Shown here piece by piece: positions 28,462-50,761 of a stretch of 64,000 nt of DNA (positions are counted from its first letter, which is position 1; every line of letters starts with the position of its first letter). This DNA comes from Candidatus Bathyarchaeota archaeon. Lineage in GTDB: Archaea > Thermoproteota > Bathyarchaeia > Bathyarchaeales > Bathycorpusculaceae. The stretch lies in the NCBI GenBank assembly GCA_963833575.1, contig CAWHXY010000006.1:288861-352860 (forward strand). Reading direction: 5' to 3'. A program made the position numbers and the translations under genes. The notes below the pieces were generated by a model. The model did no database searches, was not told where the DNA came from, and was given only the letters and a program-made list of their open reading frames with translations.

Positions 28462-29340
28462 TTGAAATTTGGAATAATGACGCGTAACATGGAAGCTTGG
28501 AGCAGCACTCAAGTTCGGGAAGCCCTAACTAAACGAAGTATTCAATACGAATGTTTCACTTTTCCAAAAATCGTCGCACGACTTGCATACAAACCCTACT
28601 TCAAAGTTAACGGCACCAGCATCCTAGACGACTTAGACGCACTAATTATCCGACCAATTGGACGCGGTTCGCTTGAAGAATTGGTTTTCCGAATGGATAT
28701 GCTCTACAAGCTTGAACGTCAAGGTTTCTACATGGTGAATCCGCCAACGGCGATTGAGCATTGTGTTGACAAATATGATATTTTGGCGCTGCTTGAGGAT
28801 GTGGGTGTTCCTGTACCACGAACACTAGCCACAGAAAGCGTAAATGAAGCGCTCAAAGCGTTTTCTGAACTTGGCGGAGATGTGGTTGTTAAACCGATTT
28901 TTGGATCCAGAGGTCAAGGAGCAACACGCGTAGTTGATGCAGACATAGCTGATACAGTGTTTAAGGCCATAACTTTCCATCATGGCGTAATCTACATGCA
29001 GGAATTTGTACCTCATGGAAACTCAGACATACGCGCCTTCGTTATTGGAGATCGAGTGGTAGCATCTATGCGTCGTGTCGCGGATGGCTGGAAAACTAAC
29101 TACAGCAGAGGAGCAAGACCTGCGCCAACAGAAATCAGCAAAGAATTTGAAGAATTAGCGGTTAAAGCTGCTAAGGCTGTCGGCTGCAAAGTTGCAGGAG
29201 TAGACATTCTTGAAGGACCAAATGGACCACGCATCGTTGACGTAAATAGTCAGCCAGGCTGGAAAGGCCTGCAGGTAGTAGCCAAAGTCAACATTGCTGA
29301 AGAAATAGTGAACTTTGTGCTCTCTGAAATCAAAAAATAA
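28462..29340 (+). CDS. RimK-family ATP-grasp alpha-L-glutamate ligase (MptN-like)
   Basis: VVKPIFGSRG, YMQEFV, DIRAFVIG, WKTN, GVDI, VNSQPGW. Confidence 0.88.
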   Translation: MKFGIMTRNMEAWSSTQVREALTKRSIQYECFTFPKIVARLAYKPYFKVNGTSILDDLDALIIRPIGRGSLEELVFRMDMLYKLERQGFYMVNPPTAIEHCVDKYDILALLEDVGVPVPRTLATESVNEALKAFSELGGDVVVKPIFGSRGQGATRVVDADIADTVFKAITFHHGVIYMQEFVPHGNSDIRAFVIGDRVVASMRRVADGWKTNYSRGARPAPTEISKEFEELAVKAAKAVGCKVAGVDILEGPNGPRIVDVNSQPGWKGLQVVAKVNIAEEIVNFVLSEIKK

Positions 29341-29343
29341 ACA

Positions 29344-30342
29344 TTATTTGCCAGAAAGAATCCTATCGTAAGGGTCGTCCGAAGTCACTGGAAAAGCCCC
29401 TTTTTTACCATTTCTAATTAATAAGTGATCTTTATTTTCGCTAAATTCGCCTATGAAGCTGGGCGAGAGCCCATTTTGACTTAGTGCCTCTGTGATTTTT
29501 TCTTTATTTTGAGGGTCAATTGCTGCGATAATTGTTCCAGTTGATGATGTAGCCAGTAGTTGCTCATCAGTTAACTTAAAATGACTTTGTAAGGCCAACA
29601 ATTCTTTACATATAGGTATGTTTTCCCAATTTATCTTAAAACCAAGTTTTGAGGCTTCAGCCAATTCATTTAAGGCTGCTACAAATCCGCCTTCAGTAGC
29701 GTCGTGCATGGCGTGAACGACGCCGGTTTTCGCAAGGGCCTGTGCTTCTCGAACGCAGCTTTGCATGTAAACTTGCTTAGAAAAGTTTTCTTGTTGCTCA
29801 ACCCCAAAAATTTTTTTTGCTAATTCTTTGTTGGCTATTGAGAAATTCGTGATTGTTTCCATGCCTAGCGGTTTAGTGCATAAGATCAAGTCGCCTGGCT
29901 TAGCGTTTGTTGGCGTAATTAGTTTTTCCAGTTGAATCGCCCCGTAAATTGTGGCGACACCAAGCAAGCCCGAAATGCTGCTATACGTGCCTGTATGCCC
30001 TCGAACGATGGCTATGTCCAATTCATCTGCTGCCTTGCAAATTTGATTCATAATTTTTTGGAAGATTTCTGGTTTAGTTGATTTTGGTCCTAGCAGGTTG
30101 ATAGTGCAGAATTCAGGTTTGGCTCCTGAAAGAGCGATATCTGAGGCTGCGTAATTGATTAATAGCCATCCAAACCATGCTTCAGGAACGCCAGTACACG
30201 GGTCAGTGGCAACTACTATGTATTTGCCGTCAAAGAGGTGAACACCTGAATCGTAACCAACCATGGGTGGAACTATGACGCGTGAATCTTTCTTTACGCA
30301 ACTTAACAGAGATTTGAGTTCTTCAGGTAGCAGTTTTCCCAT
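29344..30342 (-). CDS. AIR synthase-related (PurM/HypE/ThiL superfamily) protein
   Basis: GYDSGV, TDP, DIALSGA, GHT, AKPGD, MHDATEGG. Confidence 0.85.
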   Translation of the reverse strand: MGKLLPEELKSLLSCVKKDSRVIVPPMVGYDSGVHLFDGKYIVVATDPCTGVPEAWFGWLLINYAASDIALSGAKPEFCTINLLGPKSTKPEIFQKIMNQICKAADELDIAIVRGHTGTYSSISGLLGVATIYGAIQLEKLITPTNAKPGDLILCTKPLGMETITNFSIANKELAKKIFGVEQQENFSKQVYMQSCVREAQALAKTGVVHAMHDATEGGFVAALNELAEASKLGFKINWENIPICKELLALQSHFKLTDEQLLATSSTGTIIAAIDPQNKEKITEALSQNGLSPSFIGEFSENKDHLLIRNGKKGAFPVTSDDPYDRILSGK

Positions 30343-30354
30343 GCTTATTCAACT

Positions 30355-30912
30355 TTAAAGGTAAATGTTAAGTGTCTTGCTTCTCTGCAGCAATGCAATC
30401 ACGATTGCACAAATTATGATGCTTGGCACCATATAGGTTGCGTTGTATATTGCTGAGTAAAGGACTGGGCTCATGCCGGCTGGTGCATATTGGGGAAAAT
30501 AGATGACTCCTGAAACGAAATGAGATAGGAAACGGCCTGTCCCTCCAACAACGACGCCGACAATTGAGCCAACGGCGCCAAGGCTTCTGAAGAATCCAGC
30601 AAGTCCAACGCAGGCAAATGCCAGGGGGTAATCAAGGATGAATTGAGCAGGATTAACAACGAAAGGCTCGATTGCAAGGTCAACTACGCCAAGCACGATT
30701 CCTGCAAATATACCGATTTTAGGTCCCCGCCTTAACGCAAGCCAAAAGATAGGCACCATTCCAAGGTTAATGGATCCACCTTGTGGAAGACCAAAGAAGG
30801 AGTGACTAATTAGAGCCAATGCCCCTGCCATAGCGACAAATATTATTATTTCTGCTAGTATCTTGGTTGGAAAAATATTATTGTTTTCAGTTTCTATATT
30901 AGGTTGTTTCAC
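30355..30912 (-). CDS. thiT: Energy-coupled thiamine transporter S component ThiT
   Basis: PQGGSI, LRRG, QFILDY, HFVSGVIYF, YSAIYN. True start is GTG at 30912; the ORF-track ATG at 30951 lies inside the riboswitch. Confidence 0.9.
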   Translation of the reverse strand: MKQPNIETENNNIFPTKILAEIIIFVAMAGALALISHSFFGLPQGGSINLGMVPIFWLALRRGPKIGIFAGIVLGVVDLAIEPFVVNPAQFILDYPLAFACVGLAGFFRSLGAVGSIVGVVVGGTGRFLSHFVSGVIYFPQYAPAGMSPVLYSAIYNATYMVPSIIICAIVIALLQRSKTLNIYL

Positions 30913-30915
30913 GTT

Positions 30916-31007
30916 TTTTCCCTCCGCCAGTATTACCTGGTTCAGGTTCATTGGGTCGACAGCACTTAGCTGTCCTCTCAGCCGGGTCTTTCCCAGCTCC
31001 CCGAATT
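30916..31007 (-). ncRNA. TPP (THI-box) riboswitch
   Basis: Minus strand reads TTCGGGGAGCTGGGAAAGACCCGGCTGAGAGGACAGCTAAGTGCTGTCGACCCAATGAACCTGAACCAGGTAATACTGGCGGAGGGAAA. It contains the TPP hallmarks GGGG..GCUGAGA..ACCC..GAACCUGA..GGUAAUAC..GCGGAGGGAA and lies directly upstream of thiT. Confidence 0.93.
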
Positions 31008-31260
31008 ACCTTAATAAAATACAACGTGGAAGTTGTTTTATTTTAGGGTTGCGAAAGACTTGCACTTAGCAAGGTTCGTTAGTTAGGTTTGTAGAAGTTA
31101 AAATTTTTTGTTAAGAGAAGAAGAAACTCAAAGGAAGCAATCTTCCTACGCCTGCCAAGCTGTGCCCACATAAACCAAATGGTCAGAGCTTAATGAGGAT
31201 TAAATTTTGATCTTTCTCTCTCTAAAAAGTCTAATTAAACCGACTATTTTTGCTCCTATA

Positions 31261-31340
31261 CTCCTGTACCCTCTCAACACATCCACAACAACAAACACAA
31301 CAACACGACACCAACCATTCCATACGACACAACACATTGC
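31261..31340 (+). repeat. C/A-rich low-complexity tract
   Basis: caacacatccacaacaacaaacacaacaacacgacaccaacc...cgacacaacaca. Confidence 0.5.
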
Positions 31341-31436
31341 TAAAAAGTCTTAAGTCTGGAATGCACGAATTAGCCTAATGACAGCCATAAGAGCATACAG
31401 GTCTAACGTTGATAGAACTGAAAAGGAGAAATCAAA

Positions 31437-31706
31437 TTGAAACTATTTGATAAAGAGAAAAAACCTGAGCCAAAACCAACTGTCAAAGTTGATTCTGAAC
31501 ATGCCTTTTGTCCTAATTGTCATACTCAATTTGAATCGGTAGGTCACATCAAAGATTATCAACCTTTGATGTATGTAGCAGAAGCAGAATACTACATACT
31601 TCAATGTCCTAATTGTAAAACTGTACGATTCTGTGGAGAACTTGATGGTGTAATGAAATACGGAATAGTCAGAAAACTTGAGATTATCCAATCAGATAAC
31701 CCTTAA
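31437..31706 (+). CDS. Small zinc-finger protein
   Basis: CPNCH...CPNCK; GGAG SD upstream of the TTG start. Confidence 0.65.
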   Translation: MKLFDKEKKPEPKPTVKVDSEHAFCPNCHTQFESVGHIKDYQPLMYVAEAEYYILQCPNCKTVRFCGELDGVMKYGIVRKLEIIQSDNP

Positions 31707-31953
31707 AAAGAGCGAAAAAGGGTTGAAGCTGTAAGTTAAAAGTGGCTTTTTACCGAAAGCCTCGAATAGGTGCAAATTCTTAAAACTGCATGGATACAAC
31801 TTAAGGCTTTAAAGAGGGCAATTTATCATAAGTAGTAATTGTTTATACCTGCAGAAAGGTCTCTTAAACAGCCCTCTCGACAGAATACCTTGACTTTCGA
31901 CCTCTACATTCTGGAGCGGTCTTAGCACAAAGGATTACGTAAAAGGTGGAAAA

Positions 31954-50686: not shown

Positions 50687-50761
50687 GGGTCCGTAGCTCA
50701 GTCAGGCTAGAGCACCGGACTTTTAATCCGGGGGTCGCGGGTTCAATTCCCGTCGGACCCG
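50687..50761 (+). tRNA. tRNA-Lys(UUU)
   Basis: GGGTCCG/CGGACCC acceptor stem, D arm, CCGGA-CT TTT AA-TCCGG anticodon arm, GGTTCAATTCC T loop; no intron. Confidence 0.96.

Follow-up and report, generated by a model that had tools for sequence, protein, structure and literature searches.

The window analysed here is a stretch of 64,000 nucleotides from Candidatus Bathyarchaeota archaeon (contig CAWHXY010000006.1, positions 288,861 to 352,860 of the forward strand). Our subject is the leader of a thiT gene on its minus strand, in which the ribosome-binding site (RBS) appears to lie inside a thiamine pyrophosphate (TPP) riboswitch. When the whole window was searched with Rfam cmscan, two matches exceeded the gathering score, one to a tRNA and the other to the TPP riboswitch family RF00059. 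The latter runs from 31013 to 30902 on the minus strand and covers the entire model (positions 1-105 of 105), with a score of 62.3 bits compared with a gathering score of 54.3 bits (E 8e-10); an RF00059 search of the complete 2.75-Mb genome returned it as the single match (E 8.3e-12). A sequence-only reading of this DNA had described a full THI-box on the minus strand at 30900-31007, and both the significance of the RF00059 match and its coordinates agree with that description. The elements of the aptamer and of the gene behind it, which encodes an energy-coupling factor (ECF) transporter component, are listed here, with SD standing for the Shine-Dalgarno sequence, P for the paired stems and J4/1 for the segment joining P4 to P1.

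30902..31013, minus strand: TPP riboswitch aptamer, match to the full RF00059 model
31004..31008, minus strand: 5' strand of P1, UAAUU, from the Rfam alignment
30976..30981, minus strand: CUGAGA core motif, read from the sequence and invariant in all 58 aligned aptamers
30949..30951, minus strand: in-frame ATG inside the aptamer, at the junction of P2 and P4; start of the public 198-aa gene call, judged false
30943..30946, minus strand: 5' strand of P4, CCUG, pairing partner of the SD, from the Infernal alignment
30940..30937 paired with 30930..30927, minus strand: the two strands of P5, read from the sequence
30920..30925, minus strand: GGAGGG, made up of the SD core GGAGG (30925..30921) and the first base of J4/1
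30924..30921, minus strand: 3' strand of P4, GAGG, from the Infernal alignment, overlapping the SD core
30913..30919, minus strand: 7-nt spacer AAAAAAC from GGAGGG to the GTG, containing the 3' strand of P1
30918..30914, minus strand: 3' strand of P1, from the Rfam alignment
30355..30912, minus strand: thiT, encoding the thiamine S component of an ECF transporter; 185 aa, beginning at GTG 30912; coordinates include the stop (PF09515, TIGR02357)

In the Infernal alignment the window matches all upper-case positions of the RF00059 consensus (GGGG..GC, CUGAGA, ACCUGA, UAAU and GCG.AGGGA), among them the CUGAGA motif, which we take to be the segment that contacts the pyrimidine moiety of TPP in solved structures. 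P4 consists of the pairs C30946-G30921, C30945-G30922 and U30944-A30923, its fourth position (G30943.G30924) being a mismatch, and the junction after its 3' strand is formed by G30920 and A30919. The 3' strand of P1 ends two bases before GTG 30912, which leaves no space for a separate expression platform. The earlier reading had counted 7 nt between GGAGGG and the GTG, had placed the SD in the 3' strand of the THI-box, and had noted that a separate expression platform is lacking; the first is exact when read from the sequence, and the other two are borne out by the sequence together with the Infernal alignment, in which the SD overlaps the 3' strand of P4. Judged by its sequence, the element is a bona fide TPP riboswitch of a Bathyarchaeia archaeon and would constitute essentially the whole 5' leader of the thiT mRNA.

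The thiT product matches PF09515 (E 1.8e-47, 162 bits), with the Pfam domain beginning at residue 19, and scores 151 bits against TIGR02357, for which the cut-off is 108.45. One EcfT/CbiQ gene is found in the same genome (G000:C4:1091502-1092116, 117.5 bits). We place the start of thiT at the GTG of 30912..30910, which opens a frame of 185 codons closed by the stop at 30357..30355. According to an exact look-up, the protein publicly called for this contig instead has 198 aa and begins at ATG 30951, within the aptamer. Among 29 loci from the same order, 28 have a start codon 5-10 nt past GGAGGG (13 ATG, 12 GTG and 3 TTG), and the open reading frames (ORFs) opened by these starts encode ThiT or a related ECF S component; in the 29th locus (L008) the ORF is interrupted. 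An in-frame start further upstream is absent from 32 of 42 compact loci and present in 10, and an ATG 39 nt upstream of the start occurs only in the window and in G009. A cluster member of at least 90% identity has been annotated by NCBI at 185 aa, and the next downstream start, ATG 30831, would cut off the beginning of the PF09515 domain. ATG 30951 was rejected as the real start on the basis of the start geometry of the relatives, the rarity of such an upstream start and the 185-aa cluster member. The geometry of the relatives and the scarcity of upstream in-frame starts justify the correction to GTG 30912, a revision that the sequence-only reading had also made. Gene callers that favour the longest ORF start thiT inside the aptamer, and running the riboswitch model first fixes the start. 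A 68-aa ORF at 30863-31069 on the plus strand is antisense to both the aptamer and the beginning of thiT; we take it as spurious because it overlaps a conserved RNA. At two loci, L008 (G015) and L121 (G092), aptamer and start codon are intact but a stop breaks the thiT frame that follows, which may reflect a pseudogene or an assembly error.

Conservation of the fold was analyzed in an alignment of 58 distinct aptamers, comprising that of the window, 27 from the order and 30 from the class; locus L009 was dropped since its aptamer is identical to that of the window. Across these Bathyarchaeia aptamers 41 columns are invariant, and GGGGAGC, GCUGAGA, ACCUGA, and the CG and AGG of the 3' GGCGNAGG motif are found without change in all 58. 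The Rfam structure is formed by standard pairs in 80.6% of cases, compared with at most 54% pairing in slid controls. The covariation score was 0.248 compared with 0.153 in shuffled alignments, none of 500 shuffles reaching the observed value. The upper stem of P2 is paired in 98% of cells, with double changes in 3 pairs, and P3 in 96.6%, with changes on both sides in 5 of its 6 pairs. P5 is likewise well supported by compensatory changes, its pair 87-96 being AU in 40 sequences and GC in 17. The three P4 pairs described above are invariant in all 58 aptamers and hence uninformative for covariation; at the fourth, 9 sequences have G.U and 49 an unpaired G.G or G.A. The invariant core and the compensatory changes in P2, P3 and P5 point to purifying selection on the fold.

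We also examined how widely the element is distributed. Within the genus, 22 of 24 further genomes have an RF00059 match, as do 6 of 16 from the order's other families; in the sample taken from Bathyarchaeia, with the window genome (G000) included, it occurs in 93 of 151 genomes, representing 48 of 79 genera. Among 131 genomes sampled from the rest of Thermoproteota it was present in 20, confined to four families. The TPP riboswitch is therefore common in Bathyarchaeia, not rare. The sequence-only reading had called riboswitches rare in archaea and had known of no characterisation in this lineage: the second point stands to the extent that we found no open-access description of TPP riboswitches in Bathyarchaeia, although the subscription literature may already hold one, whereas the supposed rarity does not fit the class genomes sampled. 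Assignment to Bathyarchaeia is itself in keeping with the nearest thiT loci among species-representative genomes, which are mostly titled as Candidatus Bathyarchaeia or Bathyarchaeota metagenome-assembled genomes (MAGs). To our knowledge, mention of TPP riboswitches in archaea is usually confined to Thermoplasmatales.

Two layouts were found behind these aptamers. Among the 30 best class-level matches, 14 are compact, with the start codon no more than 16 nt past AGGG/AGGA, and precede ten ThiT and four ThiW genes; a further ThiT locus is broken (L121). The remaining 15 have leaders of 31-157 nt, and the genes behind them encode ThiC (3), ThiD-ThiN fusions (2), permeases of the cytosine/purine/thiamine family (2), ThiW (5), ThiT (1) and ORFs without a Pfam match (2). 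Some of the long leaders, such as L114 and L133, contain an obvious CUCC-type anti-SD and a GGAG-type SD. In another family of Thermoproteota (L140, L142, L143 and L146), GCUCCUUC.. is followed by AAAGGAGGUG and then by the ATG of genes for solute-binding proteins of ATP-binding cassette (ABC) transporters. In the thiM riboswitch of Escherichia coli a separate downstream SD is hidden through an added helix. On the evidence of their sequences, both platform-less and thiM-like layouts exist in these archaea, and the window is of the platform-less kind.

The capacity of the buried SD for ribosome recognition was evaluated against the host's own 16S rRNA. The 3' end of this rRNA reads ...GGAUCACCUCCU, and its CCUCC is complementary to GGAGG. 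Positions of SD-like 5-mers (GGAGG, GAGGT, AGGTG and GGTGA) were counted from the first candidate start of each of 2162 long ORFs; 317 occurrences begin at -16 to -9, compared with 0-7 per position from -60 to -20. The GGAGG of the window begins at -13, within this genome-wide peak. By RNAduplex, the duplex of the mRNA segment with the 16S tail has an energy of -10.6 kcal/mol and the two P4 strands alone -3.6 kcal/mol, so that the ribosome should win when ligand is absent. From its spacing and complementarity, the RBS inside the aptamer is likely to be functional.

Folding of the region 31013..30880 with ViennaRNA gave an unconstrained minimum of -37.9 kcal/mol, which contains the P2 upper stem, P3, a 3-bp P4 and P5; holding the P2 lower stem, P4 and P5 in place raises this by 0.7 kcal/mol (-37.2 vs -37.9). 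In the ensemble, G30925 and G30924 have unpaired probabilities of 0.94-0.97, and A30923, G30922 and G30921 of 0.05-0.19. Core-constrained folds of the 42 compact leaders showed no common closing helix, the helices being heterogeneous and often absent, and from the same 42 leaders no general alternative P1 or anti-sequestor that could serve as a second state could be defined. In these models, thermodynamic folding neither predicts a distinct 'open' state nor contradicts a switch, which would have to rest on ligand-dependent stabilisation of the marginal P4 and P1.

The position of the promoter was considered from the sequence upstream of the aptamer, where one candidate element is found:

31039..31046, minus strand: TATA-like box CTAAAATA, preceded by a CGCAACC resembling the transcription factor B recognition element (BRE); putative archaeal promoter for the transcript of riboswitch and thiT

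When 57 upstream regions were anchored on the invariant GGGGAGC, an AT-rich TATA-like block (AT fraction about 0.6-0.8) was apparent 43-32 nt upstream of the GGGG. Applying the usual archaeal spacing between TATA box and transcription start, we infer a start near 31015..31010, in which case the leader would be the aptamer alone. Calibration on the genome-wide TATA signal upstream of 1497 long ORFs lacking an SD revealed only faint bumps, and the placement thus depends on the conserved AT-rich block. Contigs from the RNA libraries of three wetland studies, with 90-99% identity, bridge the aptamer and the 5' end of thiT (30765-30991 in study X2, 30886-31036 in X3, and 30840-30942 and 30913-31056 in X1). 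Such contigs carry no information on strand, start or end, and libraries of this kind can hold DNA; the bridging contigs are compatible with co-transcription of the aptamer and thiT. Two records of X1 end at 30913, a position at which differences between strains set in, and we draw no conclusion from this. Coverage gaps were not counted as evidence, the region 31121..31827 being uncovered in all four RNA runs and the fourth run (X4) giving no contig at all.

We propose, as the likely function of this leader, a translational OFF switch in which the RBS is buried in the aptamer. The identity of the aptamer, its geometry and conservation, the complementarity to the anti-SD and the use of SD sequences in the genome are directly established; TPP binding, ligand-dependent occlusion and the site of transcription start are what we infer. 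The RBS would be part of the aptamer itself, as the SD core GGAGG includes the 3' strand of P4 and that of P1 falls within the spacer. At low TPP, P4 with its 3 bp and the weak, A/U-rich P1 would open easily, the CCUCC of the 30S subunit would pair with GGAGG, and the importer would be translated. When TPP is abundant, the ligand-locked fold would hold closed P4, the adjacent loop (presumably the one that binds pyrophosphate) and P1, so that the SD and the spacer would be denied to the ribosome and ThiT synthesis would stop.

Several observations weigh against this proposal. The canonical P1 is very weak in the window, with only 3 of its 5 pairs with 30918..30914 being standard in the Infernal alignment, and in the 58 aptamers P1 pairs in register in 54% of cells, although double changes occur in all 5 pairs. 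Only three of the five bases of the SD core (A30923, G30922 and G30921) are paired in the aptamer, and the ligand-free model already pairs these same three bases in P4, which means that the 'open' state is not predicted by folding alone. The G that creates GGAGG is present in 42 of the 58 aptamers, including those in leaders of 73-157 nt before thiC, thiDN and permease genes. We had considered that this U-to-G change reflects selection for an SD, and rejected the idea because the G is also found in the long-leader aptamers; GGAGG is better viewed as a lineage trait of the aptamer, which would serve as an SD where the start codon abuts and is not evidently an adaptation for that role. The RNA-library contigs reach upstream to 31036 and 31056, past the predicted transcription start, and may there represent DNA carry-over or read-through. 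TPP binding and a ligand-dependent change are themselves predictions from the sequence. Furthermore, according to PMC8241225, riboswitch action in archaea is known experimentally only for the fluoride riboswitch of Thermococcus kodakarensis, the only natural archaeal riboswitch to have been experimentally determined and presumably a translational one; its ligand, fold and lineage differ from those of the window's element.

A related account takes the aptamer to be genuine, and the start codon with the first codons, not the SD, to be what is mainly occluded. A 5' AGGU..UUC (31011..31003) can pair with the GAA..ACCU of codons 1-4 (30910..30901), and, with ligand bound, the GUG and the spacer would be enclosed within the three-way junction. 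The core-enforced ViennaRNA fold does close the junction with that helix (-37.2 kcal/mol), ignoring the canonical UAAUU/AAAAA P1. A similar pairing of AGG with CCU and UUC with GAA can be drawn by eye in G020 (L015), where the coding sequence is different, and long-range helices into the coding region occur at some other compact loci (L131, L138). However, the pairing is not general: the closing helices of the 42 compact leaders vary or are missing, the extension columns 3-6 pair with 112-115 in only 35% of cells, and G009 adds no independent support because its aptamer sequence is exactly that of the window. We consider occlusion mainly of the start codon unlikely, and it would in any case be a variant of the proposed switch and not an alternative to translational control. 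A different kind of control would act upon the transcript, either by TPP-promoted termination at the U5 tract located 37-41 nt into the ORF (30875..30871) or by mRNA decay after the ribosomes have been excluded. Archaeal RNA polymerase needs no hairpin to terminate at oligo-T tracts, and coupled mRNA decay is common after translational repression; moreover, the closest relatives G009, G019 and G013 (L009, L006 and L022) have a T5 or T6 run at the corresponding position. Against this, the T run codes for a conserved Ile-Phe and has no structural link to the aptamer, in other relatives that share the compact leader (for example L017, L012 and L028) it is shorter or missing, and the strict spacing of 5-10 nt between SD and start, kept at 28 of 29 loci, is needed by a translational device but not by a terminator. 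Control at the transcript level thus appears quite unlikely.

The aptamer might instead be an inert or decaying relic, brought in for example with a bacterial-type ECF thiT, so that the leader is merely a structured one that happens to hold the SD. Firmicutes-like bacteria are the typical carriers of ThiT and ECF transporters, the closest ThiT homologues outside the archaea (43-46% identity) come from Synergistaceae and Brevibacillus, and, compared with the Rfam consensus, degradation is seen in P1 and in one P4 pair. A relic is nevertheless difficult to reconcile with core motifs that are invariant in every aligned aptamer, with compensatory changes in P2, P3 and P5, with retention of the element in 22 of the 24 other genomes of the genus and 93 of the 151 sampled from the class, and with its occurrence, within the class, before thiamine genes of six kinds. 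We regard this explanation as highly improbable.

With SD occlusion by the aptamer as our preferred interpretation for the window, we tentatively extend it to a wider generalisation, which we hold to be possible rather than probable: the compact TPP switch of Bathyarchaeia would be a minimal, self-contained translational riboswitch of archaea, with transcription starting at the foot of P1 and a leader of ~100 nt that is all aptamer, operating through a bare competition between the TPP-locked P4 and P1 and the anti-SD of the 30S subunit. This would be the class-wide standard for genes of ECF S components (ThiT, ThiW and related proteins), with biosynthesis genes keeping long leaders. Pairing with the first codons may have taken the place of P1 in the lineage to which the window belongs. 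If the generalisation is correct, the switch would offer the simplest natural setting for demonstrating that a riboswitch controls SD-dependent initiation in Archaea.

The design has precedents in bacteria. [quoted passage not shown] The window resembles this direct type in that the GTG is 2 nt past the 3' strand of P1 and 7 nt past GGAGGG, and in that a purine-rich 3' segment (..AGGGA..) would serve as RBS without a terminator or anti-SD hairpin, for which OFF logic is expected. It differs in its archaeal host and its archaeal-type promoter-like element. By the definition given there, the distance between aptamer and start codon places the mechanism among kinds already known. With regard to its own sequence, the window has GGAGGG where the consensus is uAGGGA, which costs it one P4 pair, and its P1 is unusually weak.

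Other known systems share individual features with the window. The aptamer family and the presumed outcome, that TPP blocks access of the ribosome to the SD, are common to E. coli thiM, whereas the window has no separate anti-SD expression platform. The THI-element/yuaJ (thiT) regulon of Firmicutes shares both the gene family and the riboswitch class; Firmicute thiT leaders have been described as transcription-terminator switches, and of 12 bacterial thiT loci that we examined 4 had an RF00059 match upstream. Among archaea, bioRxiv 10.1101/538918 describes TPP riboswitches of Thermoplasma and Ferroplasma located upstream of multi-pass membrane proteins or putative transporters, and reports their expression in metatranscriptomes of Thermoplasmatales from acid mine drainage (AMD 'plasmas'). 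These are archaeal like that of the window and belong to a different phylum.

A platform-less RBS-in-aptamer design is accordingly not new, and what the window adds is an under-documented archaeal lineage. Because the mechanism is textbook knowledge for bacteria, the conceptual gain is small. The survey does change the picture of the TPP riboswitch class in archaea, which is widespread in Bathyarchaeia and present in four other families of Thermoproteota, and which by sequence appears to be placed there before importers (ThiT, ThiW and ABC binding proteins), ThiC and ThiD-ThiN. It could be used for predicting vitamin B1 auxotrophy and exchange in archaea of peat and sediment.

The other annotated features of the window are these:

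29344..30342, minus strand: gene of the aminoimidazole ribonucleotide (AIR) synthase family (PurM/ThiL/SelD/HypE-like; PF00586, PF02769), 12 nt past the thiT stop
28462-29340, plus strand: RimK-family ATP-grasp ligase, best match MptN at 269 bits, below the cut-off of 350
50687-50761, plus strand: tRNA gene (RF00005, 72.6 bits)

The AIR-synthase-family gene is probably co-transcribed with thiT. It scores 94 bits against the thiL model, for which the cut-off is 184, and a true ThiL (259 bits) is encoded elsewhere in the genome (G000:C4:965359-966315). A homologue stands behind a riboswitch-controlled transporter gene at 22 of 29 order-level and 5 of 30 class-level loci, and the product is probably a thiamine-related enzyme. 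The RimK-family gene is convergent with the thiT operon; MptN is the tetrahydromethanopterin:alpha-L-glutamate ligase.

Additional observations were made at other loci in the course of the survey. Many Bathyarchaeia genomes contain 2-4 aptamers. The S components behind the aptamers at L004, L020, L024, L027 and L029 match only the ECF riboflavin-type model, and outside Bathyarchaeia two loci (L144 and L145) have the compact layout before ThiW. Three loci encode ThiT proteins 96% (L030), 78% (L044) and 68% (L048) identical to that of the window and were deposited under the names of Acidoferrum, Limnocylindrales and Methanocella MAGs; these contigs are probably mis-binned Bathyarchaeia, and L048 has the same compact riboswitch.

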